Shown: positions 4,970 to 53,122, counted from the stretch's first letter. The stretch: 64,000 bases of DNA from Candidatus Beckwithbacteria bacterium GW2011_GWC1_49_16 (GCA_001029675.1 CP011210.1:64193-128192); one strand, 5' to 3'. Translations and numbers: made by a program. The notes: generated from the letters alone by a model not told the origin.

Positions 4970-4983
4970 AGCTGGTGGAGGAG

Positions 4984-5685: not shown

Positions 5686-5715
5686 AAGTTGGGGTTAATT
5701 GATTTTAGCAGATAA

Positions 5716-7881: not shown

Positions 7882-7907
7882 GGGGTTATTATAGCAGAGT
7901 CGAAAGT

Positions 7908-8882: not shown

Positions 8883-8884
8883 TT

Positions 8885-11143
8885 TTAACTGGCAACAGGG
8901 TTGATCGTGTAGGCGGACTCTTGGGGTTCGCCTTTTTCGTTTAAGGGTTTTTCGCAAGTTAGGCAGTAGTCTTTTTGGACCGGGTCTGACAAGATGATGT
9001 GTTCTTGGAGTTCTAAGTTTTCGGTCACTCCCGGCTCGGGAGGACGTTTGGTGGTGGTGTCGATCCAGATGCCGCGTTTTAAGGGCGGTTCCATGGCCGG
9101 CTCGTTGCCACGGATAAAGTATTCAAAGCGGGTTTCGCAAGGTGATTCGGGGTTGGGCCTTAGGCCGGTGATAGTGCAGACTTGAAGGCCGATGATGTTT
9201 TCCGGCCTGACCGGCCATTCGTCGGGTTGATCCTCTAGGATACCGGCCATGATGTCGTGCCAGATGGGGGCGGCGCCGGTAATGCCCGAGACTAAATAAG
9301 GGTGCATCGGGCTATTGTCGTTGTTGCCGACCCAGGCGGCGACCAAAAATGACGGGGTGTAGCCGATAGTCCAGTTGTCGCGCAAATCGTCGGTGGTGCC
9401 GGTTTTGACCGAGACGGCGTGGTTAGGAATGACCAGCTCGCTTGAACCCCCGAAGGCAGCCAGGCGAGCGTTGTTGTCAAGAAGAATATGGGAGATAAGG
9501 TAGGCGACTTCGGGGGAAAGGGCTTTGTCACCGGCTGGAAGCTGGCTAGCTAAATCGATTTGTTCTAGGGTGTTGCCTTTGAAGTCTTCGACTTTGAGGA
9601 TGGGGGTGAGGTCGACTTTTAAACCCTGGTTGGCAAAGACGCCAAAAGCCACAGCCATGTCGACCATTCTGACCTCGCCGCCGCCCAAGGTTAAACTCAA
9701 GCCGTAGTTTGACGGATCTTCCCAAGTATTAATACCCATAGCCGAGGCAGTGGCGATCATGGTTTCGACGCCATTGGCGGCGAGCATCTTGACGGCCGGG
9801 ATGTTGAAGGAGTTGCCTAAGGCAAAGCGCATTTGCACCGGGCCGTGGAAAGCGCCGTCGTAGTTACGGGGGCAATATAGGGGTTGGCCGGAGACGGCAA
9901 AACAAACGGGCACGTCCAGAAACATGGTCGAGGGGGTAAAGCCTTGGCCTAAGCCGGCGGCGTAGTTGACCGGTTTGATCGACGAGCCGGGCTGGCGCAA
10001 ACGGGTGGTGACGTTGACGTTGCCGTCGATTTCCTCATTGAAATAGTCTTTGGAGCCGACCATGGCCAGGATCTCGCCGGTTCTGGGGTGGGTGACTAAA
10101 GCGGCGGCGTTTGAAACGTTCAAGTTTTCAAGCTTCCCGGTTTCGGTGGCGATAACGTCTTCGGTCAGCTTCTGAAGGTCAAGATCCAAAGAGGTAGTGA
10201 CGCGCAGGCCGCCTCTTTCGACCAGCTGCTGGCCGTATTTATCAACCAGCAAGCTTTTGACGTAAAGGACAAAGTGGGGGGCTAAAATGTTTTGGGTTTG
10301 GGGGGCGTAAGTTAAGGGAGCGTCAAGAGCCTGTTGGTATTGATCTTGATCGATGTAGCCGTCTTCGAGCATGCGGCTTAATACCTGTTTTTGGCGGTTT
10401 TTGGCGGCTTCGGGGTCGGGGCCAAAAGGGGAGTAGCGGGTGGGAGCCTGGGGTAGTCCCGCCAAGAGCGCCGCTTCGGCTAAAGTCAGCTCGCGGGCGG
10501 CCTTGCCAAAGTAAGTTAAAGCTGCCTGCTCGATGCCGTAGGCAGTGCCGCCGTAGGGGACGTGGTTTAAATACATTTCTAAGATGTCGTCTTTAGAGTA
10601 GCGAACCTCGGTGGCAAAAGCCAAGATAGCCTCGCGGATTTTTCTTTTGATGGTGCGTTCGGGGGTTAAAAGCGTGGTTTTGACCAGCTGCTGGGTAATG
10701 GTGGAGCCGCCTTGGAGGTTACTCTTAAAGACGATGTTGACGGCGGCCCGGGTGATACCTTCCCAGGCAAAGCCGTGGTGGCGGTAAAAGTTTTTGTCTT
10801 CTATCGCCACGGTGGCATTTTTGACGTAGCCAGGGAGCCCTTCAAGTTCAATCGGGGTGCGATTTTGGTCGGCAAAGATTTCGTAAAGTAACTTCCCGTT
10901 TCGATCCAGAATTTTAGTGGAGACGGGGAAGTTACCGGCAGCCAGCCGACCCGGGGAGGGAAGGTCGTGGAAGATGACAAAGGTAGAGTAAAGACCGACG
11001 AGGATTGCGAGGCCAACAAGAAGAGCCTTTTTAGGCTGGGCACGATAGAATTTTTTAAGCCTTAAAAGGATTTTTTGCCAGAATTTCTTTTGGAGAAGTT
11101 TCTTTAAGTCTTTAAATTTTGGCATGGGAGTATTATAGTACAC
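8885..11143 (-). CDS. PBP1A-family bifunctional penicillin-binding protein, second paralog
   Basis: 752 aa. EDKNFYRHHGF and GGSTITQQLVKT GT51 motifs. SSIKP, SFNIP, KTGTTDD transpeptidase motifs. C-terminal extension of ~100 aa. Confidence 0.9.
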   Translation of the reverse strand: MYYNTPMPKFKDLKKLLQKKFWQKILLRLKKFYRAQPKKALLVGLAILVGLYSTFVIFHDLPSPGRLAAGNFPVSTKILDRNGKLLYEIFADQNRTPIELEGLPGYVKNATVAIEDKNFYRHHGFAWEGITRAAVNIVFKSNLQGGSTITQQLVKTTLLTPERTIKRKIREAILAFATEVRYSKDDILEMYLNHVPYGGTAYGIEQAALTYFGKAARELTLAEAALLAGLPQAPTRYSPFGPDPEAAKNRQKQVLSRMLEDGYIDQDQYQQALDAPLTYAPQTQNILAPHFVLYVKSLLVDKYGQQLVERGGLRVTTSLDLDLQKLTEDVIATETGKLENLNVSNAAALVTHPRTGEILAMVGSKDYFNEEIDGNVNVTTRLRQPGSSIKPVNYAAGLGQGFTPSTMFLDVPVCFAVSGQPLYCPRNYDGAFHGPVQMRFALGNSFNIPAVKMLAANGVETMIATASAMGINTWEDPSNYGLSLTLGGGEVRMVDMAVAFGVFANQGLKVDLTPILKVEDFKGNTLEQIDLASQLPAGDKALSPEVAYLISHILLDNNARLAAFGGSSELVIPNHAVSVKTGTTDDLRDNWTIGYTPSFLVAAWVGNNDNSPMHPYLVSGITGAAPIWHDIMAGILEDQPDEWPVRPENIIGLQVCTITGLRPNPESPCETRFEYFIRGNEPAMEPPLKRGIWIDTTTKRPPEPGVTENLELQEHIILSDPVQKDYCLTCEKPLNEKGEPQESAYTINPVAS

Positions 11144-11152
11144 AAAAAGGCT

Positions 11153-11776
11153 ATGGTTGATCCGAAAACGCTAAAGTATAAGAATGTGACCATTTCTGGT
11201 CTTCCCGGGGCGGGGTCGTCGACATTGGGGCTAAGTCTTTCGCGCGTTTTGGGCTGGGAATATTTTTCGGGCGGAGATTTTATGCGCCGTTATGCCGTGA
11301 AGCGGGGACTTTACGACCAAAGAAAGCGGGCGCACCACTCGGCAGCGGTTTACAGCGGCAAGTTTGATCGGAGAGTTGATTATCGCCAACGGGAGACGCT
11401 TCAGAAAAAAGAGGGAAAGATTTTGGATTCGTGGCTGTCCGGGTTTATGGCTCAAGGCTTAGTTAAAGTGTTGAAGATTTTGGTTTTTTGTAATAAAGAT
11501 TCGCTTCGGGTCGACCGGTTGGTTAACCGGGACAACACTTCGGTGGAGGAAGCCAAAAAACACATGTTTGAAAGAGAGAGGGATAATTTTTCCAAGTGGA
11601 GCCGGATGTATAAAAAAGAATGGGATGAGTGGCTGCCGGCAAAGACCAGAGGGGCGAGAAAAGGCAATTGGCTTAACTTTCATCACCCCGGGCTTTATGA
11701 CTTGGTGATCGATACCTACGCGGTGAGCAAAGAAAAGTCGCTTAAGCTGACGCTTGACGCTTTAGGATATAAATAG
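11153..11776 (+). CDS. cytidylate kinase-like P-loop NMP kinase family protein
   Basis: 207 aa. Walker A SGLPGAGSST near the N-terminus. Resembles the archaeal-type CMP kinase / cytidylate kinase-like family. Confidence 0.55.
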   Translation: MVDPKTLKYKNVTISGLPGAGSSTLGLSLSRVLGWEYFSGGDFMRRYAVKRGLYDQRKRAHHSAAVYSGKFDRRVDYRQRETLQKKEGKILDSWLSGFMAQGLVKVLKILVFCNKDSLRVDRLVNRDNTSVEEAKKHMFERERDNFSKWSRMYKKEWDEWLPAKTRGARKGNWLNFHHPGLYDLVIDTYAVSKEKSLKLTLDALGYK

Positions 11777-11789
11777 GTATATATAAGGT

Positions 11790-12719
11790 ATGAGAAAACA
11801 ACGGGGCGGACTAACGCTTTGGGCAATAATTTTGGGGTTGGCGATAAGTGCTTTGGTTTTGAACGTGTCTTACGGTCGCGCCCAGGAAGAACCTTTTGAT
11901 TCCACTGGCGAACAGCAGCTAGATTTGGTTCAGGGTGAAGCGACGGGCTCGGCGATGACAGTTGAAGCGGCGGCTCAAAGTGAAGGGGTGGAGTATTATC
12001 TGCCTTACCCCGGAGTGTTGCCCGACCACCCGTTGTATTGGCTCAAGATGATTCGCGATCGGGTGCAGTTGTGGTTGACGACCAAGTCTTTGCCCAGGGC
12101 GGAGAGATTGCTACTTTATGCTGATAAAAGGTTGGGAGCGGGCTGGGCGCTTATTGAGGGGGGCAAGGCCGACTTGGGGGTGACGACGATTACCAAAGCG
12201 GAGAAGTATTTGGAGAGAGCTTTGACGGAAACAACGAGCTTAGGAGACGGTGGCGACGAGGTGAGGTTTAAGAAGAGGCTTGGTCAGGCGGCTTTAAAAC
12301 ACGCCGAGGTGATCGATAAGCTTAGGGGGAGGGTGGACGAGCTAGACCGGGCGGCATTGGATGAGGTGATGAGGGTGCCCGGCGCCGTGACGGAAGAGCT
12401 TGAGGCAGCGGCGATGGAAAAGGAAAAGATGGAAGTAAGGGTGAGGGTGGAGTTTAGTGAAACAGAAGTGGTCGAAGGGCAAGTTAGAGCAGAGACGGCT
12501 TTGGAGGCGTTAACAAGTTTAGCGGATCAAGAAGGTTTTGAGGTGACGACCAAGATTTATGATTTTGGCAGCCTGGTGGAGGCGATTAACGATGTTGCCA
12601 ACAGCGCCGACAAGGCATGGATTTATTTTGTCAACGATAAGGCGGGAGAGGTTGGGGCGGGGGATTACCGGCTTAGCGCCGACGATGTGGTCGAGTGGCG
12701 TTATGTTGAACCGGTTTAA
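11790..12719 (+). CDS. secreted/membrane-anchored protein with DUF5667-like N-region and C-terminal DUF4430 (transcobalamin-like) domain
   Basis: N-terminal hydrophobic segment. PYPGVLPDHPLYWLK block typical of DUF5667 proteins. C-terminal KAWIYFVNDKAGEVGAGDYRLSADDVVEWRY fits the DUF4430 pattern W-Y-VNG...G...L-DGD-I-W-Y. Confidence 0.5.
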   Translation: MRKQRGGLTLWAIILGLAISALVLNVSYGRAQEEPFDSTGEQQLDLVQGEATGSAMTVEAAAQSEGVEYYLPYPGVLPDHPLYWLKMIRDRVQLWLTTKSLPRAERLLLYADKRLGAGWALIEGGKADLGVTTITKAEKYLERALTETTSLGDGGDEVRFKKRLGQAALKHAEVIDKLRGRVDELDRAALDEVMRVPGAVTEELEAAAMEKEKMEVRVRVEFSETEVVEGQVRAETALEALTSLADQEGFEVTTKIYDFGSLVEAINDVANSADKAWIYFVNDKAGEVGAGDYRLSADDVVEWRYVEPV

Positions 12720-13266: not shown

Positions 13267-13442
13267 CGATTCGCCTTTAGGGTGTGAAGCCATTGTCCCC
13301 ACCTAAGTGTGCCAATTTTTGGCGGGGGTGAGAAGGCTTTTAAACTCGCGGGAACCAGGCGTGATTCCTGGGCTATGCCGTAGCTGTTACAGCCAGAAGA
13401 CCGGCCTTAGAGGGGGTAAAGCAGTCATTTCCCGAGCAGGAA

Positions 13443-15134
13443 GTGAGGCGATTTTTTGTGGGCGTAGAATTTGATATCAGGGCCAGTTTAGCGGCAGCGA
13501 CAAAGGCATTTGACCAGTCCGTCGCCAGCGGTTGGCGGGCGATTAAACAAGAGGGGAAAAACCTATTCACAAGGGGTAAAGAAATAAGCGATCCTTGGGG
13601 GGCATATTTTAAAACGCCACTAGAAATAAGGCTCGATTCTCAAACTGGTAAAAGGAAGATATTTTGGCAAGGCTATGATCGTTCGGTCAGCGCCTCGATG
13701 CGACGCCATGCCGCGTGGCTAAGGCTTAATGGGGCAACTAAAGAAGAGATAGGCAAGGCAAGGGCGGAGTTATCGGCATGGCAGGGGTTGGAGACAGTTA
13801 TTCTAGGCCTAGAAGAAGGTGAAGCAGTACAGTTTTTGGCATTGCGAAGTTTAGATTCTAACGATGGTGTGGCCTTACAGCAGGTTAGCTTGAGAAATGG
13901 ACGCCTGGCGTTGGAATCACAGTTGTTGCCGTTTGATCGACCCGAGCAAATAGACAAATTTATTGAGAGCGTTGAATTTATGGGAGAAAGTTTAGAAATT
14001 AACCAGGCCGAAACCGATGTGGACCTGTTGGTATTTTGGGCGGTTAAGGGTGAAGCGATTGATTTTAAGCAGGATGTGCCTAAATTGATTGGGGCGGCGA
14101 CGAGAGCCGAGCAGCTGCCAACGATTCAGTCGAGACAGGCAGTGGTTGGTGATGTGCCTGAAGTATTAGCGGCGAACCCATTAGAAGACAGGGTGGTATC
14201 GGCTAAGCCGACGAGCTTTTGGTTTGAAATGGCGGCAGGGGTGAAAATTGCTTCAAGGTCCGACCCTGAAGCGGCGGAAGCGGCGGAGTCGGAAACGATA
14301 GTTTTGGATCGTCCAGAAGTCACGCCGGTTGTGTTTGCGGCAACCTCTGGGAAGATACAAGAAAGGGAAGTGATGGAGGGAGTTAGACCTGTGGTGGCAG
14401 TAAAACCTGTGTCGGCGGTAAGCCCTGCGTCCCGGCCCGCGAAAGCTTCTGGAAAAACAGGTGGGCGAGTAGATGTTGAGGCTGAGGCCGGCGTGATGCC
14501 TACGGGATCAGATCCTGTAGGACAACAGCCACCTTCAAGGATAAACCCTGAAGGAATCGAATCAACTCGGCCAGTTGAGCCCGACCAGCCGAAAGTTAAC
14601 CTCGATGCGCCACAGCAAGATTTTGTCCGTGACTTTGTCGATCTGTCTGCGCCTAAACATTCTATGGAAGTTTCTGAAAAAGTGGATGTGGTCAAGGAGC
14701 AGGACCATACGGAAGCTTCCGGAAAAACAGAAGTAGGGCAACTGCGACCTTCAAGGATAAACCCTGAAGTTGTGAAAGTGGAGCCGCCGGTGTGGCAAGT
14801 GGAGCTAGAAGGTTTAAGCTGGCAGGAGATACCGGAATGGAAGTTTGACAACCTGCTGGTGGAAGGGGATTGGGGGTTTTCGGTAGCGGCAGGCTTAACC
14901 AGCCTGAATGAGCAAATTATGACGGCTAAGAGGGCTTTTGAGGGCAGGCAGTGGCCGATTTTTGATTTTTATTGTCAGGTTTCAAACGTTGTGGCAGCAA
15001 CACTTTTTTTGATTGCGAACACATTTTGCCTAGATACACAGGGCTTGATTTTAGCGGAGGAGAAAGTGTTTGAAAAAAGCGGGGGAGTGGTTAGCGGTTT
15101 GACACCCAATTTCTTGAGGAAAAACGAAAGTTGA
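13443..15134 (+). CDS. hypothetical protein with internal repeats
   Basis: 563 aa. The repeated block ASGKT...PSRINPE occurs twice. Pro/Val/Glu-rich central region. No recognisable catalytic motif. Start codon uncertain. Confidence 0.4.
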   Translation: MRRFFVGVEFDIRASLAAATKAFDQSVASGWRAIKQEGKNLFTRGKEISDPWGAYFKTPLEIRLDSQTGKRKIFWQGYDRSVSASMRRHAAWLRLNGATKEEIGKARAELSAWQGLETVILGLEEGEAVQFLALRSLDSNDGVALQQVSLRNGRLALESQLLPFDRPEQIDKFIESVEFMGESLEINQAETDVDLLVFWAVKGEAIDFKQDVPKLIGAATRAEQLPTIQSRQAVVGDVPEVLAANPLEDRVVSAKPTSFWFEMAAGVKIASRSDPEAAEAAESETIVLDRPEVTPVVFAATSGKIQEREVMEGVRPVVAVKPVSAVSPASRPAKASGKTGGRVDVEAEAGVMPTGSDPVGQQPPSRINPEGIESTRPVEPDQPKVNLDAPQQDFVRDFVDLSAPKHSMEVSEKVDVVKEQDHTEASGKTEVGQLRPSRINPEVVKVEPPVWQVELEGLSWQEIPEWKFDNLLVEGDWGFSVAAGLTSLNEQIMTAKRAFEGRQWPIFDFYCQVSNVVAATLFLIANTFCLDTQGLILAEEKVFEKSGGVVSGLTPNFLRKNES

Positions 15135-23924: not shown

Positions 23925-24608
23925 TTGATGGTTCGAATGGCTAAGGTTTTGATTGAAAAAAGGATTGAGGCGATAAAATTAAGAAAGTTAGGAAAAAGCT
24001 ACTCCCAGATTAAAAACAAGTTGGGTGTGAGTAAAAGCACTTTGAGCTATTGGTTGAGAAGATACCCTCTATCGAAAGAAAGGATTAGAGAGCTTCAGAA
24101 AAGTGAGAGGGCAATTGAAAAATACAGAGAAACAATGCGAAGAAAAAGAGAGGAGCGGTTAAGAGGCGTTTACAAGAAAATGAAGAAGAAACTATTGCCG
24201 CTTACAAAGAAACAGTTGTTGATAGCAGGTCTGTTTTTGTATTGGGGAGAAGGGTTAAAAGCAAGCCAGTCTCAGGTTAATTTCAGCAACAGCGATCCGG
24301 AAATGGCGAAGTTTTATTTATATTGGCTAACTAGAGCGTTGGGGATTAGCAGAAGAAAAATTAAGGTAAGATTACATCTTTACAGAGATATGAATATTAA
24401 CGCGGAGACAAAATATTGGAGCGAGCTATTAAGAATACCGAGAAGTCAATTTACTAAACCCTATATTAAAAACACAACCCTTAAAAGTATTACTTATAAA
24501 GGGTTTGGGCACGGCACGTGTGATATTAGATACGGAAACGTTGGTTTAAAAGAAGAAATAATAATGGGGATAAAGGCGATTTCGGATAAACACTCAAGAC
24601 TTTCGTGA
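23925..24608 (+). CDS. HTH-domain protein with LAGLIDADG-like homing-endonuclease-type core (paralog 1)
   Basis: 227 aa. N-terminal resolvase-type HTH (GKSYSQIKNKLGVSKSTLSYWLR). Central LLIAGLFLYWGEGLK...NSDPEMAKFYLYWLTRALGI matches LAGLIDADG helix/beta/beta/helix spacing. AT-rich relative to neighbours. Paralogous to 27685-28362. Confidence 0.5.
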   Translation: MMVRMAKVLIEKRIEAIKLRKLGKSYSQIKNKLGVSKSTLSYWLRRYPLSKERIRELQKSERAIEKYRETMRRKREERLRGVYKKMKKKLLPLTKKQLLIAGLFLYWGEGLKASQSQVNFSNSDPEMAKFYLYWLTRALGISRRKIKVRLHLYRDMNINAETKYWSELLRIPRSQFTKPYIKNTTLKSITYKGFGHGTCDIRYGNVGLKEEIIMGIKAISDKHSRLS

Positions 24609-24620
24609 TAAAATACGCTT

Positions 24621-24692
24621 AGGCGGATAGCTCAATGGTAGAGCGGTGCTCTTATACAGCATTGGTTGTGGGTTCGACTCCCGCTCCGCCTA
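24621..24692 (+). tRNA. tRNA-Ile, anticodon TAT (UAU)
   Basis: Folded by hand: acceptor AGGCGGA/TCCGCCT, D-arm GCTC-AATGGTA-GAGC, anticodon stem GTGCT/AGCAT with loop CTTATAC, T-arm GTGGG-TTCGACT-CCCGC, discriminator A. No encoded CCA. Confidence 0.7.
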
Positions 24693-24700
24693 CAAGATGG

Positions 24701-24772: not shown

Positions 24773-25240
24773 ATGACTTTTGAAAAGCCACGCCATAGAT
24801 TGCTACCAAAAAGGGATATCAAAGAGGCCTTGAACGAGATGCAGGCTCTTGCTTTTCGCGGAATTTGCGGCGAGATACTTGCAGGGAGGGAGATTCAAAA
24901 ATTTGATATGTATTTGTTCGGCTCCATTTCTAGAGGAACATTTGATGATGACTCCGATATAGATGTTTTGTTAGTGCTTGAAGGCGACCAAAAAACTAGT
25001 AGTGGGGTGCAGGAGATAAGCCCAAGACTTCAATTTTGGTTGGTAGTTGAATTAACAAGAGTTCGTCCCAAAATTGAAGAGGAATTGGGTAGGTCAGTTG
25101 AGATCGCTTTTGCCACTTATGATGACCTGGAGATTGCTAGAGAATCTCTTCGTGACGGTATGTGGAATCATTTAACGCGAATCTATAGAGATCTTAAGCC
25201 TTTGACTGACAAGGATTCGAGAGAGTTTATAGCTCTTTGA
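24773..25240 (+). CDS. minimal nucleotidyltransferase (Pol-beta superfamily, MNT/KNTase-like)
   Basis: LFGSISRGTFDDDSDIDVLLV = GSxxRG...DxD nucleotidyltransferase motif. Start taken at the ATG at 24773. The longer listed ORF start overlaps the tRNA and is spurious. Confidence 0.65.
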   Translation: MTFEKPRHRLLPKRDIKEALNEMQALAFRGICGEILAGREIQKFDMYLFGSISRGTFDDDSDIDVLLVLEGDQKTSSGVQEISPRLQFWLVVELTRVRPKIEEELGRSVEIAFATYDDLEIARESLRDGMWNHLTRIYRDLKPLTDKDSREFIAL

Positions 25241-26090
25241 GGCTGGCGGGGGCTTCGGCTTTGTTTTTGACTACGTCCAGGTATTTTTCGGTGGTACTAA
25301 GCCTCTTGTGGCCGACAAGCTTGGACACCAAGGTTAAGGGGGTGCCGGCCGTCAGCTGGTGGGCGATAAAGGTGTGCCTTAAATCGTTGACCTTGGCGTT
25401 TTTGATGTCTGACAATTTAAAGAAGCGGTCGATGGCGGTGCGGATGTTTCTAATCAAAAAAGGCCGGCCGGTTTTGGTGACAAAGACTTTTTGGCTTTTG
25501 GTTTTGGGGCGGGGTTTAAGGTAGTCGGCCAAGGCTTGGTGAGCGGCTTTGTTTAGAGGCACAACTCGTGAAGAGTGGGATTCGTAGGCACGAATGGTGA
25601 GTTTGTTGTCGTCGACGTCGTTTAACTCAAGGTTGGCCAGCTCGCCGATTCTGATGCCGGTTTGGAGCAGCAACTCGACGATGGCCCTGATCCTAATGTC
25701 GTCGCGGCAGACGTCGCGCAGGGCGCGATATTCCATTTTAGTTAAAACCCGGGGCGGTTTGATGTCGTACTTGGGGTGGGAGACGGCAGCGGCAGGGTTG
25801 GTGGTGATTGCTTTTTGAGCCAGCAAAAAGCGGCAGAAGGTTTTGATGGAGTTTAGCTTGCGGCTAATGGACTTGGCGGTGTATTTCTTGTCGGCAAGAT
25901 ATTTTTTGAAGTCTTCGATGTGGCTGGTGGTAAGATTATTTGGTTGGTGAACTTTTTTGGGAGCGACAAACTGGATTAGTTGGTCGACGTCCTTGTTGTA
26001 TGCTAGGATAGTGGACGTGGAGCGATTCTTGTTTTTAAGATCTTCGACAAAGGCAGTCCTGGCGGCTTTAAGATCGTTTGGTTTAACCAT
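25227..26090 (-). CDS. tyrosine site-specific recombinase (XerC/XerD/integrase family)
   Basis: 287 aa. N-terminal core-binding SAM-like domain. Catalytic LRHTF (box II His/Arg) and HKRLSTTEKYL (catalytic Tyr). Converges on, and overlaps by 14 nt, the nucleotidyltransferase gene. Confidence 0.8.
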   Translation of the reverse strand: MVKPNDLKAARTAFVEDLKNKNRSTSTILAYNKDVDQLIQFVAPKKVHQPNNLTTSHIEDFKKYLADKKYTAKSISRKLNSIKTFCRFLLAQKAITTNPAAAVSHPKYDIKPPRVLTKMEYRALRDVCRDDIRIRAIVELLLQTGIRIGELANLELNDVDDNKLTIRAYESHSSRVVPLNKAAHQALADYLKPRPKTKSQKVFVTKTGRPFLIRNIRTAIDRFFKLSDIKNAKVNDLRHTFIAHQLTAGTPLTLVSKLVGHKRLSTTEKYLDVVKNKAEAPASLKEL

Positions 26091-27684: not shown

Positions 27685-28362
27685 ATGGCTAAATCTGCCC
27701 AACGGTTGGAAGCGAGACGGCTACGACGGCAAGGCTACAGCATTAACGAGATCGCCTCAAAGGTGACAATATCTAAACGAACTGTAAGCAGGTGGTGTAG
27801 AGATATTGTGTTGAATAGGCGACAGAAGAAAATTTTGTGGGCGAGGGCCAAATCTAAATACGCGATTAATTTTAGAAAATACCTTGAAAGAAAAAGTTTA
27901 AGAACCAAAAACAAAATTAAAACCCTTAGGGTAAAAGGGATAAATAAGATTGGGAGTTTGTCCGAAAGGGAACTATTTGTCGTTGGTGCCTCTCTGTATT
28001 GGGCGGAAGGATTTAAAAAAGACACGAGAATCGGTTTTGCTAACTCTGATCTGGATATGATTAAGTTGTTTATTAGGTGGTTAACGAAGTGCCTAAAGAT
28101 TACCAAAGATAATTTGACTTTTTGTGTAACCGTCAATGCTTCGTATAGAAGAAAAATTGCTGAAATTGAGCGGTATTGGGTAAAGAGTTTAGGCGTTAGT
28201 AGAAAGCAATTCACCAGGCCGTTTTTCCAAGAAGTTAAATGGAGGAAGAAGTATGAGAAACCGGAGGAATATCATGGCGTGTTAAGGGTAAGGGTAGTTA
28301 AGAGCCTGGATTTGTTGAGAGAGGTTAATGGTTATATTGAAGGGTTGAGGCGAAGTGTATAG
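27685..28362 (+). CDS. HTH-domain protein with LAGLIDADG-like homing-endonuclease-type core (paralog 2)
   Basis: 225 aa. N-terminal HTH (GYSINEIASKVTISKRTVSRWCR). Core LFVVGASLYWAEGFKKD...NSDLDMIKLFIRWLTKCLKI aligns with paralog 1 (LYWxEG...NSD...WLT). AT-rich. Immediately followed by a tRNA. Confidence 0.5.
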   Translation: MAKSAQRLEARRLRRQGYSINEIASKVTISKRTVSRWCRDIVLNRRQKKILWARAKSKYAINFRKYLERKSLRTKNKIKTLRVKGINKIGSLSERELFVVGASLYWAEGFKKDTRIGFANSDLDMIKLFIRWLTKCLKITKDNLTFCVTVNASYRRKIAEIERYWVKSLGVSRKQFTRPFFQEVKWRKKYEKPEEYHGVLRVRVVKSLDLLREVNGYIEGLRRSV

Positions 28363-28384: not shown

Positions 28385-28457
28385 GGCAGGGTAGCTCAGT
28401 TGGTGGAGCACGGGATTCATAAACCCGCGGTCGCGAGTTCGATCCTCGCCCCTGCTA
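28385..28457 (+). tRNA. tRNA with anticodon CAT (Met, or Ile2/initiator class)
   Basis: Hand fold: acceptor GGCAGGG/CCCTGCT (G1-U72 wobble), D-arm GCTC...GAGC, anticodon stem CGGGA/ACCCG (A31-A39 mismatch) with loop TTCATAA, T-arm GCGAG-TTCGATC-CTCGC, discriminator A. Confidence 0.65.
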
Positions 28458-28928
28458 CTAGGAAGCCTTTTTAATTTCCTGATGATCGGGCCAGACGGGG
28501 CGAGTCATTTTTTCCCACCAGTAAAACTGATTGCCTTTCTTAAAACTCATCTTGGCTAGAAATTTTTCCTCGTTTGAATCAGGGCGAGCCAGCCAGTCAA
28601 TGTCGTCAATCCCGAGTTTTCCCAATCTTTTTTGGCATTCGGCAAATAAGGCCTCGTCAACGCCTACGTCTTTATCTTTAGGCAACACCATAATGTTTTC
28701 GCCCATGGCCCAGGTTCTAAACATTACCCGACAAAAAAGAAAACCAACAATTTGTCCGTCTTTGTTCGCTACTAATAAGATGTCGTCGTTTTTTTGCTTG
28801 AGCCAGGCGGTTAAATACTTTTGATCGTAAAAACCGGTTTCACCCACTTGAAAGTCCTGGTTCAAAACCCCTGGTTTATAAATCTGGTCAATATCTTGTT
28901 CGGTTAAATCCCGAACCACAATCTCCAT
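28458..28928 (-). CDS. GNAT-family N-acetyltransferase
   Basis: 156 aa. ILLVANKDGQIVGFLF beta-strand/motif A-like region typical of GNAT fold. Specificity unknown. Confidence 0.45.
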   Translation of the reverse strand: MEIVVRDLTEQDIDQIYKPGVLNQDFQVGETGFYDQKYLTAWLKQKNDDILLVANKDGQIVGFLFCRVMFRTWAMGENIMVLPKDKDVGVDEALFAECQKRLGKLGIDDIDWLARPDSNEEKFLAKMSFKKGNQFYWWEKMTRPVWPDHQEIKKAS

Positions 28929-32008: not shown

Positions 32009-32368
32009 ATGGCAACCATGATTACCATCAACGATTTTGCTAAAATTGAAATCCGCGTCGGCAAGGTGATGAAAGCAGAGAATGTGGCGGGAAGTGAGAA
32101 ACTAATTCGACTGAAGGTTGACGTGGGAGAAGAGAAGCCGCGGACCATTTTTACCGGAGTGAGGCCTTTTGGATATGAGGAGAGCGATTTTGAGGGGAAG
32201 AAGTTTTTGTTTGTGACTAACCTTGAGCCGAAACCAATAATGGGTGAAGAAAGCCAGGGGATGGTGTTGGCGGTTGACCCCACTTCGCCAGAGGCTTCGT
32301 TGGGGCAGGCGTCAAAGCCTTTATTTATTTCCGGGGAAGGGATGCCGGTAGGGGCGAAGGTAAGATAA
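32009..32368 (+). CDS. tRNA-binding protein (CsaA/Trbp111/EMAP-II-like OB-fold domain)
   Basis: 119 aa. DFAKIEIRVGKV...KLIRLKVDVGEEKPRTIFTG matches the MetRS C-terminal-like tRNA-binding domain. Confidence 0.7.
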   Translation: MATMITINDFAKIEIRVGKVMKAENVAGSEKLIRLKVDVGEEKPRTIFTGVRPFGYEESDFEGKKFLFVTNLEPKPIMGEESQGMVLAVDPTSPEASLGQASKPLFISGEGMPVGAKVR

Positions 32369-32861
32369 GCTGATTGTATTCTTGCCAAAAAGCTTTGGGT
32401 AGCTCGGGTGAATATTCTTCAATAATTTTTTCCATACTAGGATTAAAAGGTGGAGTGGTTACGTTTTGAATTAACAAGCCTTCGTTGCCAGCCACAAAAC
32501 AGAATGCGTGACCAGTGCCATATTGAAGCACAATGGGTTTTTCGGCGTCAAGATAATGTTTGGTAATTTTCCCCTTAGGATCGATATCTAAAAACCAGCC
32601 ATTCCCCTTAATCGCGTGTTCGATTAATTGGACTTCTGGTTCAGTTACCTTAGCCACCGCGGTGTGGGAATCTGGATCGATATCAAACAACGCTCCACTG
32701 GCCCAATCCTTGGCTTCATCCAGAAAGACAAAGGGGTAAATATGATATCCACCCAGATCAATGTCTGGTTGAAAATCTATGTTTCGGTGAACACTTTTAA
32801 ACTCAACGCTTTTGATTTCGACTTTATCCATATGTATATTTTTGTGATATAATAAAGCCAA
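32325..32861 (-). CDS. hypothetical protein, possibly cupin-like
   Basis: 178 aa. Gly/His-containing beta-rich segment (QYGTGHAFCFVAGNEG). No firm family assignment. 3' end overlaps the convergent upstream gene by 44 nt. Confidence 0.3.
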   Translation of the reverse strand: MALLYHKNIHMDKVEIKSVEFKSVHRNIDFQPDIDLGGYHIYPFVFLDEAKDWASGALFDIDPDSHTAVAKVTEPEVQLIEHAIKGNGWFLDIDPKGKITKHYLDAEKPIVLQYGTGHAFCFVAGNEGLLIQNVTTPPFNPSMEKIIEEYSPELPKAFWQEYNQLILPSPLPASLPRK

Positions 32862-47880: not shown

Positions 47881-48750
47881 ATGGACCAGTTTGACCCTAA
47901 AGTTTTAGCCCAGCTTTATCGGCCTCCCAAAGATTCACACAAAGGCCAGAACGGCAAGCTACTTTTGATCGGCGGGAGCCAGTTGTTTCATGCGGCCAGC
48001 ATGTGGTCTTTGGAGGTGGCCAGCCGTATCGTCGATATGGTGTTTTACTTTAGCGTGCCGGTCAATGAAGCCATCGTCAAAAAGCAGAAGGAAAGATTTC
48101 ACGACGGCATCGTCGTCCCCCAAGGCGAGGTGGAAACGTATCTTGGCGAGGCCGATTGTGTACTTATCGGCCCGGGGATGGAACGGGGCAAAGAAACAGA
48201 GGAGAAAACCAACAAGCTTTTGAAAAAATATCCTGACAAGCGCTGGGTGATTGACGGCGGGGCTTTACAGATGATGGATCCCGGATTACTCAACGAGCGA
48301 ATGATTGTTACCCCACATTTAAGGGAGCTTAGAGGTTTGATAGATCGTTCCGGAAGAAAATTGCTAATTTCTAAATCCGAATTTCTAAACAAATTCAAAT
48401 TTTCTAAGGACCAAATATCTAAAATGGCCGATTTTTTGGAAGATTTTTCGAAGGTCTATGGTGGGGCGACAGTGGTGCTTAAAGGGCCGACGGATGTGGT
48501 TTGTGATGCCAAACAGTGCGTGCTTAATGTTACTGGTAACGAGGGGATGACCAAAGGGGGAACGGGTGACGTGTTGGCGGGGTTGGTTGCCGCGCTTTAC
48601 TGCAAATCGCCCGCTTTTTTGGCGGCCTCGTGCGGCGTTTATCTTAACGGTTTGGCCGGCGACCGGCTTTACAGCTTGGTGGGTGCTTACTTTAACGCTT
48701 CGGACCTGGTCCACGAGATTCCCAAGGTAATGGCGGAAGTTTTAGGTTAG
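47881..48750 (+). CDS. nnrD: NAD(P)H-hydrate dehydratase (YjeF C-terminal domain family)
   Basis: HKGQNGKLLLIGGS and GPGMERG, GGTGDVLAGL motifs of the carbohydrate-kinase-like Nnr2 family. Its last 14 codons form direct-repeat copy 1. Confidence 0.8.
   Translation: MDQFDPKVLAQLYRPPKDSHKGQNGKLLLIGGSQLFHAASMWSLEVASRIVDMVFYFSVPVNEAIVKKQKERFHDGIVVPQGEVETYLGEADCVLIGPGMERGKETEEKTNKLLKKYPDKRWVIDGGALQMMDPGLLNERMIVTPHLRELRGLIDRSGRKLLISKSEFLNKFKFSKDQISKMADFLEDFSKVYGGATVVLKGPTDVVCDAKQCVLNVTGNEGMTKGGTGDVLAGLVAALYCKSPAFLAASCGVYLNGLAGDRLYSLVGAYFNASDLVHEIPKVMAEVLG
48708..48750. repeat. 43-bp direct repeat, copy 1 (left flank of insertion)
   Basis: GGTCCACGAGATTCCCAAGGTAATGGCGGAAGTTTTAGGTTAG. It is the 3' end of nnrD. 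Confidence 0.9.
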
Positions 48751-51700
48751 TTGGCCTGTTTATTGGCATTATTTAATCTTTTTAACTAAGTCATTTAGAT
48801 TAATTGTTTCTTTAAGGCTGCTTAGTTTTTCTAAGGCTTCAGCCTCTATTTGTCTAATTCTTTCCCTGGTTAACCCAAACGCATAACCAACTTCTTGTAG
48901 AGTGTAGAAGACGCCGTCTTTTAAACCATACCTCATTCTAAGAATCTCAGCCTGCCTTGGAGAAATGTTGTTTTGGGAAAGGAGAGTATCTACTTGATGT
49001 CTAATTACTCTTTGGAGTGCTTCTCTTTCGGTGTCCACATTGGGGTCTTTAGTTGTGTCTAGCAGAGTTCTTTCGTCATCTCCAGGGGCTGATGCCTCGA
49101 GTGAAATAGGATACACTCTTTGTAGCAAGGCCTGAATTCTTTCAACGGGAATGTTTGTTTTCTCCGAGATAAGCTCTTCAGAGACCTGTTTTTGTTCTTT
49201 CTCGATTTCTCCGATAGCTCTTGTAATTTGAGTAAAAAGCTTGTTGTCGTATGTTGAAAGTCCCCTGTCTTGAGCCAAAAGGGCCCTCATTTCATTTTCG
49301 ATCCAGTAGGTAGCGTAAGTTGAAAGTTTTACCCCTTTTCTCCAGTCATATTTGTTAATTGCTACAAGTAAGCCTATATTTCCTGTCTGATAAAGGTCAA
49401 AAGTTGATGGCTTAGCTCCTCTTTTTTTAAACCTACTGGCTAAAAAGAAAATCCAACGTTGCATAGATTTAATTAGAGCATCTTTGGCTTCTTGTCCACG
49501 CAGAACAAATTGTTCTAGGTTTTGACTATCTGGATGTTGAGGGTTGTTCTCGATTGTTTCTTTGGCTAGCTCGCCACGCTCGATCTCTTTAGCAAGGGCT
49601 ATTTGTGTTTGTAGATCGTACGTTTGGTAAAGATTTACCCTCCGGCCTATTTCTGTGGGGAGGTCAATGGTGTCATAGTCTTCTTCTTCGGCAACCGTAA
49701 TGCCCGATCTTACCCTGGCAAGAATTTCCGCCAGCACTTGATGTTCCTGGGTAGTTGTTTCGTCTTCAACAGGGAAGGCAGAGGACTTTCGGAGAGAAGT
49801 TAGATATTCTTCGTCAAAAATGTACTCAAAATCATCTGGGAAGTTAAGCAAAAGCAACTCTCTAACGTCGAGAGGTGCCTTAGAGTAAAGATAAGATTTT
49901 AAGCTTGAGATTACACTGCTTGTTAGGGTCTCTGGGAGTTCTTGTAAACCATCTTCTAAAAAGAGTTGCAAGTGTCTGGAAAAAGTATGGACTAAGGTGT
50001 AGTATTTTCCTAAATACGGCTTTCTTTTTTCATCTGTTTTTTGTTCAAGTTTGATGTTTTCCTCGTCAAAAAAGAATAAAAAATTCCAAAAGGTTTCGTT
50101 TTTTGCCTTAAACATTTCTAGATCTTGACGGAGTTCTTCCCAAAAGTCTTTTGTTTCTAGTGTCTGAATCCATTGTTCTGGAGAAACTCGCGGCCTAATA
50201 AAAGATACTTTTTTCTCCAGCTCTTGCTTAGCCATTCGTATTGCTTGAATTAATTCTGGTTCGTAAGGAAGGGTAGGAGTGAAGTTGCGGATAAAATGTC
50301 CAGCGCTTTCGGTGTGCCTTTCTAGCGCATATAGGAGGTTGAGATAGTATCCTGGAGTAGATGGATTAATCTTGCCGCCGTTGTTTTCATTTCTTGAAAA
50401 ACCCCTCATAAAGTTAGTGAAATAGGTGTTCTCTGGTATGGTTTTAAGGTCTTGATATAGTTGCACCCAAAAAGCCTCTGTATGGAGTTCTTCATAGTAG
50501 TCTCGCCAATTTTTTTTAATAGGAGTTTCTATAAGTTTCTCTATTAAATTAAGCTGAATTTTTGCTACTAAATCCATGACTTCTTGTTTTTGTGGTTGAT
50601 ACTCTGTGAGATATTTATATGGATATCTAATGCCAGATTTCCTGAGAGCCAAAACCAAGTTATAGTATTTACCGTTAGTGTAATTATCTCTTTCTGCCCA
50701 GTTTGGGTTATCGGGATCGTAGAGGCTAAAAAACTCTCTTTGGGTATAGGCTTTTTTTGGTAGCTGGTCGAGATCTTCTTGAATTTCCAGCCATAAATCA
50801 TGGGTTTCCAGTTGGGCTAAATAGTGTTCTTTTGGCAGGCAAGTTGGAGGAAGTAAATCTTCTGGTTGTGAAAAATCAACCGCTAACACTGGTCTTTCAA
50901 CTTGCGGTTTATCCAGAGTTGGAAGCAGATAAAAGACAGCCTTACCGTCTTGGTGTTTTATTATCCTGCCCGATTCTGATAGATGTTTTAACACCGGGGC
51001 AGTTTTTTTTCCGTATCGTTCCTTTAAATCTTTTGGTCTTGTGGGACCATACTCAATTAAGTGGTCAATAATTATATCTGCGTTTTCTTCTTTGGTTATT
51101 TTTTCGTTGTGTCTTCTGTAGTTTTGTATGGCTTTTTCGGTTATTGAGGGGTCATTCTGAATTTTTTCTAGGGTTTCATTCATGGTTGTCAATTGTTGAG
51201 TGTGTCCAGAAACGGCCGCTAGTATAGGCCTAATAATTGTTTCTACAAATTCTGTTCCCTTCGGGGTTATATGGGTTATTGATTGTTGAACACCGCCAGT
51301 CCACTTTTTTGTTTCAAGGTAACCAGATTCAGCTAATTCTGAAAAAATAGTGTAAACATCCGAGGCATCTTGTCTGCCGAGAGCCTTTAGAACGCTTGGG
51401 ATATTTCCTTCTTCATTTACTTCAAAGTATTTAATAACATTTTTTCTTAGTCGGTTAAGTCTTGGGGAATGGGTTGCAAGATTTTTAGGCCCTACTCGCT
51501 TATATATAAGCCAACCTTTTTGCTCCGTGTCTACAGCCTCGTGATTTATTAATCCTAGGTCGTTTAGGGATTTAAGATTGCCCCTGATAGAGGAGAGATC
51601 TGAGTTTAATGTTCGGCATAACTCGATTTCAAAAGAACTTTTTTGATTAAGGGTTAAAAGTATAGCGCTTCTGGTGATATGAGCTCTGTTGCCACTTGAA

Positions 51701-52238
51701 GTTATTGGTTGACCGAAGATTTTAGACGCAGGAATGTCTTGACTGGCAGAATACTCCAACAACAATGCGGCTATTGGTTTGGCGTAGTTTTCTGCTTCTA
51801 AAGTAAGCTGGTATCCTTTGTTTGTTTTTTGAGCTAAGCCTGTAGGGAGCAGAGAATTAATCAAATATGACATATATATAGAGTTACTTTTTGGATACCA
51901 TGTGGAATAGCCTATACAGTCTCGGGTGCGTTTTCTTAGAGAAGAGACCGAAATAGGTTCAGGAGCGAAACCATGAACAACTAGTGCTTGTTTGGGTTCT
52001 GCTGTGCCGAGGGCGAAGATAACTCTGTCAAATCTTCTTAGGTGTTCTGGCCCAATTTTCGAACCTTCAAGGTTGTTGAGCAATGATTCTAAGTTAGATT
52101 GTTGCCACGTTGTTTGGCCGATTTCGCTTTGACCACGATTTTCCACTAGCATAGTTATCTGGGCGGATTTGAAAGATTATACCACTTGAGGAAAGTTAAA
52201 TATGCCAAGACTGCCGGTCCTATTTATTATTCTGCTTT
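48751..52238. mobile_element. ~3.5 kb single-gene insertion bounded by 43-bp direct repeats, AT-rich relative to flanks
   Basis: Direct repeats at 48708-48750 and 52239-52281 (41/43 identical, both differences synonymous in each reading frame). The insert holds only the 1127-aa sigma-fusion gene. Composition is visibly AT-richer than flanking housekeeping genes. Confidence 0.7.
48769..52152 (-). CDS. giant sigma-70-family protein (1127 aa): C-terminal RpoD-like sigma regions 1.2-4.2 behind a ~800-aa N-terminal extension
   Basis: C-terminus: DLYQTGNIGLLVAINKYD...KLSTYATYWI (region 2). TLQEVGYAFGLTRERIRQIEAEALEKL (region 4.2 HTH). N-terminal part has several winged-helix-like segments (e.g. 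ITPKGTEFVE) and three tandem ~60-aa repeats (D/E-x-W-x-E...DL...P...GKYY-x-LV). Confidence 0.75.
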   Translation of the reverse strand: MLVENRGQSEIGQTTWQQSNLESLLNNLEGSKIGPEHLRRFDRVIFALGTAEPKQALVVHGFAPEPISVSSLRKRTRDCIGYSTWYPKSNSIYMSYLINSLLPTGLAQKTNKGYQLTLEAENYAKPIAALLLEYSASQDIPASKIFGQPITSSGNRAHITRSAILLTLNQKSSFEIELCRTLNSDLSSIRGNLKSLNDLGLINHEAVDTEQKGWLIYKRVGPKNLATHSPRLNRLRKNVIKYFEVNEEGNIPSVLKALGRQDASDVYTIFSELAESGYLETKKWTGGVQQSITHITPKGTEFVETIIRPILAAVSGHTQQLTTMNETLEKIQNDPSITEKAIQNYRRHNEKITKEENADIIIDHLIEYGPTRPKDLKERYGKKTAPVLKHLSESGRIIKHQDGKAVFYLLPTLDKPQVERPVLAVDFSQPEDLLPPTCLPKEHYLAQLETHDLWLEIQEDLDQLPKKAYTQREFFSLYDPDNPNWAERDNYTNGKYYNLVLALRKSGIRYPYKYLTEYQPQKQEVMDLVAKIQLNLIEKLIETPIKKNWRDYYEELHTEAFWVQLYQDLKTIPENTYFTNFMRGFSRNENNGGKINPSTPGYYLNLLYALERHTESAGHFIRNFTPTLPYEPELIQAIRMAKQELEKKVSFIRPRVSPEQWIQTLETKDFWEELRQDLEMFKAKNETFWNFLFFFDEENIKLEQKTDEKRKPYLGKYYTLVHTFSRHLQLFLEDGLQELPETLTSSVISSLKSYLYSKAPLDVRELLLLNFPDDFEYIFDEEYLTSLRKSSAFPVEDETTTQEHQVLAEILARVRSGITVAEEEDYDTIDLPTEIGRRVNLYQTYDLQTQIALAKEIERGELAKETIENNPQHPDSQNLEQFVLRGQEAKDALIKSMQRWIFFLASRFKKRGAKPSTFDLYQTGNIGLLVAINKYDWRKGVKLSTYATYWIENEMRALLAQDRGLSTYDNKLFTQITRAIGEIEKEQKQVSEELISEKTNIPVERIQALLQRVYPISLEASAPGDDERTLLDTTKDPNVDTEREALQRVIRHQVDTLLSQNNISPRQAEILRMRYGLKDGVFYTLQEVGYAFGLTRERIRQIEAEALEKLSSLKETINLNDLVKKIK

Positions 52239-53122
52239 GGTCCACGAGATTCCCAAAGTGATGGCGGAAGTTTTAGGTTAGGCAGGGCGGCGGCCAAAAC
52301 GATCAAGGCCCCGCCCAAGAAAGTGGTGGCAGAGAGAATTTCGCCGAAGAATAAAAAGCCAAAGAGGATGCCGAAGATAATTTCAGCCATGCCGATAAGG
52401 CTGCCGATAGAGGCTTCTAAATATTTGAAGCCTTCAATCACTGAAAAGTTGGCGATCAAAAGCGCAGCGGCGTAGGCGGCGGCGGCTAGCCAAGCGGAGT
52501 GGGCGGAGATAGGGGGAAGAGAGTCTTTAACCAAGTAGGCGATCAGGCCATTGGCGACGAGCATAACGGTGAGATAGCCGGCCATGATTTGGAATTCGTG
52601 ATACTGGCCTGACAATTTTTTAGGCAAGACTGCTGAAATTGCCCCCATGAGGCCGGCGATGATGGTTAAGGTAGCCGGCCAGATTTGAGCCGGAGTCAAG
52701 GAAAGGCGGTAGATTACTCCTAGGCCGGCAAGACCGATGACCAGGCTTGTCAGTTTGGTTCTGGTCAGGGTTTCGTTGAAGACGAGTTTGCCGATAAGGT
52801 AGCCGCCGATGACCAGAGCGGCGTAGAATAAAAGGGTGGCGGTGCCAACCCCAAGGTGTTGGAAGCCGTAGTAATAAGGGGCTTGATTTAGGCCGATTGA
52901 GGCAATAACCAAAAACCAAGGCCAGTCTTTTTTAGGCATGGGTTTGAAGAGTTTTTTCCATTTACCGACCAGGACTACAAAGACCAATAAGATTAAGCCC
53001 CTGGTCCAGGCTTGGCTAAATTCGCCAAAGTCGTGGCCCATGAGGTGCGACCAGACGCCGTAGGTGGCAAAAAAGACAGCCGAGTTTAAAATCCAGGCAG
53101 TACCTTTTGTTTTTGGGTTCAT
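52220..53122 (-). CDS. EamA/DMT-family transporter
   Basis: 300 aa. 10 predicted TM helices in two EamA-like halves. C-terminal codons lie inside direct-repeat copy 2. Confidence 0.7.
   Translation of the reverse strand: MNPKTKGTAWILNSAVFFATYGVWSHLMGHDFGEFSQAWTRGLILLVFVVLVGKWKKLFKPMPKKDWPWFLVIASIGLNQAPYYYGFQHLGVGTATLLFYAALVIGGYLIGKLVFNETLTRTKLTSLVIGLAGLGVIYRLSLTPAQIWPATLTIIAGLMGAISAVLPKKLSGQYHEFQIMAGYLTVMLVANGLIAYLVKDSLPPISAHSAWLAAAAYAAALLIANFSVIEGFKYLEASIGSLIGMAEIIFGILFGFLFFGEILSATTFLGGALIVLAAALPNLKLPPSLWESRGPKQNNK
52239..52281. repeat. 43-bp direct repeat, copy 2 (right flank of insertion)
   Basis: GGTCCACGAGATTCCCAAAGTGATGGCGGAAGTTTTAGGTTAG. On the minus strand it encodes the C-terminal LKLPPSLWESRGPKQ of the EamA transporter. 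Confidence 0.9.

Follow-up and report, generated by a model that had tools for sequence, protein, structure and literature searches.

A single-gene segment encoding a giant sigma factor, acquired within the overlap of two convergent genes in a Candidatus Beckwithbacteria genome

Genomes of the Patescibacteria, or candidate phyla radiation (CPR), are tiny and gene-dense and contain many overlapping genes. In a 64-kb stretch (hereafter the window) of the genome of Candidatus Beckwithbacteria bacterium GW2011_GWC1_49_16, a CPR member from groundwater, we found that positions 48751-52237 are horizontally acquired DNA, which in an ancestor of this Beckwithbacteria lineage entered the 59-bp overlap between the 3' ends of two convergent genes, nnrD and an EamA-type transporter gene. 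The acquired segment is bounded by direct repeats of the nnrD 3' end and carries one gene, which codes for a sigma factor of 1127 amino acids (here called the giant sigma). An earlier note on this DNA, made from the sequence alone, had proposed such an insertion and had stated that no integrase or transposase lies inside it; searches with Pfam, NCBIfam, PHROGs and PADLOC and comparison of folds likewise revealed neither.

The segment is delimited by a direct repeat of 44 nt (TGGTCC...GGTTAG, at 48707-48750 and 52238-52281), of which 42 positions are identical. The earlier note had located both copies correctly and had given a length of 43 bp with 41 identities, which is one base too short. This pair is by far the longest direct repeat that a repeat finder reported within 46-55 kb, and a degenerate pattern of the repeat matched twice in the window compared to no match in 100 dinucleotide-preserving shuffles. 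The proximal copy forms the last 13 codons and the stop codon of nnrD (Carb_kinase/NnrD), the C-terminus of which is normal for its family (...EIPKVMAEVLG followed by the stop, in an alignment with 31 homologs), and the two mismatches between the copies are both synonymous in the nnrD frame, as had been remarked before. On its minus strand the distal copy encodes near-terminal residues of EamA (...NLKLPPSLWESRGP). It had been described as encoding the last EamA codons, which is correct for these near-terminal residues and not for the very end, as the last five codons and the stop (KQNNK and stop, 52220-52237) lie outside the repeat, in inserted DNA.

The composition of the insert is clearly foreign at synonymous sites. 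Its GC content of 39.4%, compared to 50.1% elsewhere, is lower than that of any other 3.5-kb stretch in the 64 kb. The GC content at third codon positions (GC3) of its gene amounts to 0.34 and is uniform along the gene, compared to 0.605 in the EamA gene on the same strand and to a mean of 0.567 across 54 other genes (z=-2.6). The earlier claim of an AT-richer insert with exactly one gene thus holds, and the comparison of GC content and codon usage suggested at that time does distinguish the insert (GC3 0.34 vs ~0.6). No inverted repeats or imperfect palindromes were found at the insert ends.

The history of the site could be read from the closest EamA relatives, which were compared together with their DNA. 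In locus L010 (EamA 77% identical), the convergent EamA and nnrD genes overlap by 59 bp and the 43-mer of the earlier note is present as a single copy, the DNA to its left being homologous to the left flank in the window and the DNA to its right to the right flank. L011 and L012 (EamA 78% identical) also have an overlapping convergent pair with a single 43-mer, EamA running into the nnrD 3' end in antisense. In two other arrangements EamA and nnrD are adjacent with nothing between them, separated by an 18-bp gap (L019) or overlapping by 8 bp (L017 and L018). The presence of an empty arrangement in several related lineages makes the empty state ancestral by parsimony, which gives the event its polarity. 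A related empty site with a single copy, as had been predicted, therefore exists in L010 and in L011/L012, and the convergent overlap that was postulated for the ancestor existed as well, with a length of 59 bp and not of about 43 bp.

The ancestral EamA stop codon was the TAA made by the conserved Phe-Asn codons of nnrD (TTTAAY). As the repeat covers only 44 of the 59 bases of the overlap, nnrD was left intact and the EamA tail was swapped: EamA lost its last four codons (GPKR, with the stop) and gained five from the insert (KQNNK, with a new stop). Of the earlier statement that both reading frames were kept intact, only the part on nnrD can hence be maintained. The distal repeat survives because its minus strand still encodes the end of EamA. 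As a side observation, in L010, L031, L079 and L090 the strand opposite the nnrD 3' end can be read without a stop up to the TAA of the conserved Phe-Asn codons, and convergent downstream open reading frames of differing families overlap nnrD by the same 58-62 bp in several lineages; some of these reading frames may be spurious.

At both mismatch positions the distal copy has the base found in L010, which represents the ancestral state. The two derived bases are thus both in the proximal copy, where they are silent for nnrD and where they would change EamA. Strain L003 has a third derived synonymous base in the proximal copy, and the sole nucleotide difference between two strains in all of nnrD, seen in the NCBI strain, is such a silent change inside the proximal copy. 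This pattern suggests that the proximal copy has been drifting at synonymous sites since it was released from dual coding. Five independent assemblies agree base for base over both junctions and the entire insert, and a sixth differs by one base; the contigs that share this sequence are 78-173 kb long and derive from independent samples and assemblers (ENA, JGI, NCBI). The six agreeing assemblies exclude an assembly chimera, which the earlier note had proposed to check by read mapping. The features of the locus are listed in Table 1.

Table 1. Features of the insertion locus and the Xer-like gene, in positions of the 64-kb window
Feature	Position	Strand	Evidence or remark
nnrD, NAD(P)H-hydrate dehydratase, target gene, intact	47881..48750	+	PF01256, E=5.6e-30
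Direct repeat, proximal copy, functional nnrD 3' end (LVHEIPKVMAEVLG and stop)	48707..48750	+	repeat finder, direct reading
Inserted DNA of 3,487 bp (39.4% GC) with a single gene and a promoter-like region of its own	48751..52237	.	alignment with L010 empty site; composition
Spacer of 18 bp, nnrD stop to cargo-gene stop	48751..48768	.	direct reading
Cargo gene, 1127-aa giant sigma	48769..52152	-	gene call, domain searches
Winged-helix module of cargo protein, residues ~20-410	50923..52095	-	homolog alignment, AlphaFold model
All-helical repeat region of cargo protein, residues ~440-800	49753..50835	-	
Sigma-70 regions 1.2-4, group 1/2-like, cargo residues ~845-1127	48772..49620	-	Pfam, NCBIfam, Foldseek
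Extended -10-like motif TGGTATAAT, within the insert	52176..52184	-	consensus match only
New EamA tail KQNNK and stop, from the right end of the insert	52220..52237	-	replaces ancestral GPKR and stop
Direct repeat, distal copy, orphaned nnrD 3' end	52238..52281	+	minus strand encodes EamA ...NLKLPPSLWESRGP
EamA/DMT transporter gene, once overlapping nnrD by 59 bp	52220..53122	-	PF00892, E=1.3e-22; empty-site relatives
Xer-like tyrosine recombinase, host-like composition, 23 kb from the insert	25227..26090	-	Phage_integrase, E=1e-29

The single gene of the insert (48769-52152, minus strand) is called with a long start, which is supported by the alignment of its homologs from residue ~13 onwards. 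An AlphaFold model of the protein (mean pLDDT 79.7) shows four to five winged-helix (ArsR/MarR-like) domains within residues ~20-410, a module that also occurs as stand-alone proteins of ~400 amino acids, followed at residues ~440-800 by an all-helical region of three repeats of ~110 amino acids (W..FW.E..DL...GKYY.L), for which no known fold or family matches were found. The C-terminal ~280 residues are a sigma-70 factor with regions 2-4. The Pfam models for Sigma70 regions 2 and 4 score above their cut-offs and that for region 3 reaches 20.7 of the 25.3 bits needed, and all top Foldseek matches are primary sigma A proteins (E~1e-11, ~300 residues covered). By its regions 2, 3 and 4 and its sigma A fold, the protein belongs with the group 1/2 sigma-70 factors. 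It is not an equivalog of the housekeeping sigma factor RpoD, its scores being under the NCBIfam cut-offs: RpoD_Cterm matches with E=1.6e-42, yet with 145.7 bits against a cut-off of 354, and PRK05658 with 143 against 555 bits. From its folds, the protein would be an accessory sigma factor, the C-terminus of which should bind core RNA polymerase and the winged-helix array and helical repeats of which probably add recognition of DNA or of a partner. The -10-like motif TGGTATAAT is situated 23 nt upstream of the ATG of the gene; a standard -35/-10 scan did not report it. No second sigma gene is present within the window.

The full-length family comprises only about 15 representatives, which are 900-1127 amino acids long, share ~35% identity and are found in unrelated contexts. 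A phage or plasmid origin was considered and rejected, as tblastn with the N-terminal 884 amino acids found nothing among 50,697 phage records and 72,556 plasmid records, and a scan of IMG/VR viral contigs yielded no relative either. Proteins with a comparable layout, i.e. a group-1/2-like sigma C-terminus on a long N-terminal region and encoded on accessory DNA, are MzaA of the MZA anti-phage system (NF041931, PDLC02203) and the phage sigma factors of phrog_351. The match to MzaA comprises the sigma part only (135 vs 800 bits), and the winged-helix array and helical repeats of the cargo have no counterpart there. Further homologs of the giant sigma (L100, L101, L102 and the P0003 contig) are on contigs of 3.6-4.6 kb that end near the gene, as would be expected of assemblies broken at island boundaries that vary between strains; none of these contigs showed a circular overlap. 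The homolog contigs of P0245, P0246 and P0253 (3.6-4.6 kb), which have no tRNA, flanking repeats or circular overlap, are uninformative.

The nnrD 3' end has been reached more than once. We assessed ~75 relative loci, taken from the 80 loci of a metagenome scan with an nnrD alignment and from loci fetched earlier, and found three others in which the nnrD 3' end of the locus recurs shortly downstream. In L013 a repeat of 53 nt surrounds a 1,461-bp toxin-antitoxin cassette of PIN/Phd type, with more cargo behind the distal copy. In L070 a repeat of ~48 nt surrounds a two-gene cassette of ~490 bp that includes a DUF2283 protein, and in L026 a repeat of ~44 nt, running through the stop codon, surrounds a DUF4143 fragment, and additional cargo follows before EamA is reached. 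All four repeat pairs, that of the window included, contain the EIPKVM codons, and in none of the four cargoes was a recombinase found, whether by sequence or by fold. Neither did the insert, L013, L070 or L026 give any Rfam match.

The copies in these three sister loci differ mainly at third codon positions (14 of 22 nt, p=0.0035), and this holds also for distal copies that do not code. Counted by codon, 12 changes are synonymous and 6 conservative, and either copy, when translated, gives a plausible nnrD C-terminus. Because of this synonymous bias in non-coding distal copies, the repeats of L013, L070 and L026 are best read as two nnrD alleles, one of which would have arrived together with the cargo rather than by duplication of the target in situ. 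The earlier wording that the overlap was duplicated may therefore be wrong; in the window, the two copies may be two alleles or may have arisen by duplication in situ.

The diversity of neighboring genes was also inspected as a possible sign of a hotspot. Downstream of nnrD there are 25 neighbor families in 50 loci compared to 15 upstream, and we rejected this as an argument by itself, since among the 13 closest relatives the numbers are 9 and 7. In L016 (nnrD 70% identical, with Phd/YafQ genes downstream) no repeats were found downstream of nnrD. Two side observations concern the nnrD genes themselves. L013 contains a genome-specific repeat of 30-147 nt, 88-97% identical and without Rfam match, in five copies within 13 kb (8830-8976, 10207-10316, 12128-12169, 9583-9613 and 11172-11200), one of which lies in frame inside nnrD and another of which, at the boundary of the insert, provides nnrD with a new C-terminal tail. 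In the window, nnrD has a separate low-GC patch at 48320-48470 (codons ~135-200), with a GC content of 0.27-0.38 and a GC3 of 0.36, compared to 0.62-0.66 in the remainder of the gene; there the protein sequence is like that of the distant homolog P0111 and unlike that of the close relatives. The patch falls in a variable loop of the enzyme and represents a second mosaic segment that is independent.

The giant sigma family itself was also found at another gene end. Its best full-length homolog, P0002 (36-39% identical), is encoded in another CPR genome (locus L009) directly after a tRNA-Pro(GGG) gene. The last 17 nt of this tRNA are repeated exactly past the sigma gene (7999-8015), and a second orphan tRNA end, matching at 18 of 19 positions, follows 84 bp further (8081-8099; region 4402-8105). 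The resulting segment of 3,523 bp has the sigma homolog as its sole gene and no integrase, and the two orphan ends are signs that this single-gene island may have grown by tandem accretion. Between them lies the motif CCGCCAGAGG, which is similar to the L013 repeat. The GC3 of the homolog (0.33) is near that of its host (0.36-0.49), by which the family looks native to CPR lineages of lower GC content; the composition of the copy in the window would fit such a low-GC ultimate source.

How the segment entered the overlap we infer from these patterns. The reading that we consider best, though we hold its probability to be slightly under even, is that a cargo-only cassette lacking its own enzyme integrated by a Campbell-type single crossover in the 3' end of nnrD, catalyzed in trans. 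A circular form of the cassette, carrying a copy of the nnrD 3' end, would cross over once with the chromosomal nnrD 3' end, with the help of a tyrosine recombinase from a helper element, of the Xer-like enzyme of the host or possibly of RecA acting on short homology. The crossover would leave one repeat at nnrD, which remains complete, and push the other 3.5 kb away; EamA would lose four codons and take five codons and a stop from the insert, after which the copy on the nnrD side, freed from coding for EamA, would drift at synonymous sites. The implied empty site reads ...CTTCGGACC/TGGTCCACGAG...GGTTAG/GCAGGGCGG, and the implied junction of the circular cassette ...ATTCTGCTT/TGGTCC...GGTTAG/TTGGCCTGT (...CTGCTT/TGGTCC...GGTTAG/TTGGCC...), slashes marking the borders. 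The targeting of gene 3' ends, the repeats of 17-53 nt, the restored target, the tandem orphan ends and the allele-like copies all fit a crossover between a cassette-borne and a chromosomal gene end. The only recombinase seen in the window is the Xer-like enzyme, which matches the XerC, XerD and XerA models with E~1e-47 to 1e-50, below their cut-offs, and integrase_gron with 75 bits against a cut-off of 265. Its gene has a GC3 of 0.65, and it is a possible candidate for acting in trans, with nothing that links it to the insert.

Several observations weigh against a trans-catalyzed crossover. Neither a circular form nor an excision product nor a helper element was seen, and none of the ~75 assessable loci has an integrase-bearing element at the nnrD 3' end. 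The synonymous sites of the EIPKVM codons are not conserved across 66 nnrD genes, and this free variation gives no sign of a DNA recognition core common to the clade. The repeat boundaries differ among the four nnrD cases, the islands of the window and of L009 share no end sequences or inverted repeats, and a homology of 44 bp is short for RecA. Finally, the copies in the window differ at only two to three synonymous sites and the 3' third of nnrD is host-like, so that the window alone does not show one of the copies to be foreign.

The main rival to a crossover is a one-sided recombination of linear DNA, which we regard as unlikely on balance, while giving it real weight. Linear DNA that carried part of nnrD and the sigma gene and that had been taken up from a related cell would recombine homologously within nnrD and be joined illegitimately 44 bp before the resident stop codon, by which the resident 3' end is orphaned. 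Such an event needs no integrase, predicts two alleles in the repeats, allows variable boundaries and agrees with the lack of a conserved DNA core. It is also plausible given the competence and pilus genes that are reported to be prevalent in Patescibacteria, organisms whose horizontal transfer is mostly from Patescibacteria to Patescibacteria (PMC12455944), and both homology-facilitated illegitimate recombination and an orphaned 3' end as its outcome have been described, as a proposed mechanism, for Rhs, contact-dependent inhibition (CDI) and type VI secretion system (T6SS) loci (PMC5361080, section 13). The positions of the joints argue against it: all four would have had to land in the terminal ~33-62 nt of a gene of 870 nt, a clustering with a probability of the order of 1e-5 under a uniform distribution, unless long repeats are quickly lost, and no longer repeat was seen, though a 93-nt probe would detect one. 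The 3' third of nnrD in the window, moreover, shows no donor-like mosaic, being host-like and closest to near relatives, and in L009 the anchor for homologous recombination would have to be a tRNA of 74 nt.

A true target-site duplication, in which staggered cuts 44 nt apart were followed by ligation of foreign DNA and filling of the gaps, would have produced copies that were once identical and drifted later. The window copies do fit, being 95% identical with every difference confined to sites of the proximal copy that no longer serve two genes, and the strain-level polymorphism would then reflect a proximal copy that is still drifting. We nevertheless judge this improbable. There is no transposase and there are no terminal inverted repeats, transposon target-site duplications are 2-15 bp as a rule, far less than the 44-53 nt seen here, and the differences in the non-coding distal copies of L070, L013 and L026 are mostly synonymous (12 of 18 observed, ~35% expected). 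More speculative, and rated by us as quite improbable, is that the giant sigma gene is a self-mobilizing single-gene element, the protein or the RNA polymerase that it directs driving excision and integration of its own ~3.5-kb cassette at gene 3' ends, in this case that of nnrD and in L009 that of tRNA-Pro. If true, this would define a new class of self-mobilizing elements without a recognizable recombinase fold. In a broader sense, small cassettes may be captured at gene 3' ends in CPR bacteria independently of an integrase.

There is very little chance that the sigma gene is ancestral between nnrD and EamA and was lost from the relatives by recombination between the repeats, even though a deletion between the 44-nt repeats would regenerate a single-copy site. 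At least four distinct lineages (EamA identity 59-78%) are empty, with overlaps of 59 bp or 8 bp or a gap of 18 bp, and in all of them the sigma gene is absent at that site; the GC3 of the cargo is 0.27 below that of its neighbors, its homologs occur in unrelated contexts, and the origin of the repeat would be left unexplained. An assembly artefact, i.e. a chimeric join at the repeated 44-mer, has nothing in its favor other than the presence of the repeat and is refuted by the sameness of junctions and insert across independent samples and assemblers and by a protein that is indexed in 88 collection blocks.

Compared to known systems, the event is of a known kind, namely an island without integrase at the 3' end of a gene. 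The closest parallels are the cis-mobilizable elements (CIMEs), integrated elements that retain attL and attR and have no integration or transfer genes (PMC5704250, section 2.3). As in CIMEs, recombinase-free cargo lies here between direct repeats containing the 3' end of the target gene (44 nt, 42/44 identical, resembling attL and attR), integration and transfer genes are absent, and copies are found in tandem or accreted form (the two orphan tRNA ends of L009; the further cargo of L026 and L013). CIMEs are, however, decayed integrative and conjugative or integrative and mobilizable elements with an integrase that recognizes their att sites, and no integrase-bearing element was present next to the nnrD 3' end in the limited sample of ~75 loci. 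The insert differs further in being a single gene without a conserved att core, and in its target, the overlap of two protein-coding genes, in which the orphan repeat continues to code for the second gene.

The displacement of 3' ends at Rhs, CDI and T6SS loci is a second parallel, as a new 3' end and cargo arrive there without an integrase, the resident end is orphaned and the copies are different alleles. An orphaned resident 3' end is likewise present downstream at 52238-52281 and in L013, L070 and L026. What is exchanged at those loci are polymorphic toxin tips and immunity genes, and the orphans left there are hundreds of bases long, whereas here 44-53 nt of a housekeeping gene were displaced by unrelated cargo at tightly clustered positions. 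The two-allele pattern is seen in the sister cases; in the window, the host-like 3' third of nnrD would fit a donor of close kinship as well as the complete absence of donor sequence.

Islands of tyrosine integrases are similar in the restored 3'-end target, the direct repeats of 17-53 nt, the foreign composition and the tRNA-Pro site of L009. They differ in that the five cases described here have no integrase, adjacent or otherwise, measure 0.4-3.5 kb and have no arm-type sites or shared ends; across the 66 nnrD genes no core is conserved beyond coding constraint. Three other candidates were rejected: a transposon or insertion sequence (no transposase, no terminal inverted repeats, a repeat of 44 nt), an integron cassette (no end palindrome or attC, no adjacent integron integrase) and an integrative mobile element exploiting Xer recombination (IMEX) at a dif site, as the repeat is coding sequence and the GC skew is positive over the whole 64 kb with no switch, an Xer-like gene being present. 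What is unusual is the insertion into an overlap that keeps the orphan repeat coding, the independent recurrence at one site, and an uncharacterized giant sigma as a single-gene island.

A number of other features were observed in the window. Two low-GC paralogs on the plus strand (23925-24608 and 27685-28362; 31% identical, ~225 amino acids) carry at the N-terminus an HTH_23 domain that is weakly similar to transposases and end 12-23 bp before tRNA-Ile (24621-24693) and tRNA-Met (28385-28458), respectively; they may be tRNA-associated accessory genes. The Xer-like gene (25227-26090, minus strand) is situated between these two HTH_23/tRNA pairs. Two minus-strand genes (4984-5685 and 32325-32861) with a GC3 of 0.35-0.38 and no Pfam match may have been acquired. 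A cobalamin riboswitch (13289-13423, plus strand; 45.7 bits, above the gathering score) lies upstream of the open reading frame 13443-15134. Over the window (1-64000) the GC skew ranges from 0.08 to 0.35 with no change of sign, most genes are on the plus strand and the minus-strand host genes are rich in C at third codon positions.

The locus provides an example, at base resolution, of how a CPR genome takes up a gene without breaking the old ones, a process that is poorly understood. The repeat made by entry into a convergent overlap leaves both genes a usable 3' end, and the same 60 bp of nnrD were reached independently in at least four lineages by recombinase-free cassettes. Together with the presence of the cargo family at a tRNA 3' end elsewhere, this recurrence points to a recurrent route of gene capture supplied in trans, which could be searched for systematically. 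A giant sigma factor that moves as a single gene furthermore raises the question whether acquired sigma factors rewire transcription in minimal cells.

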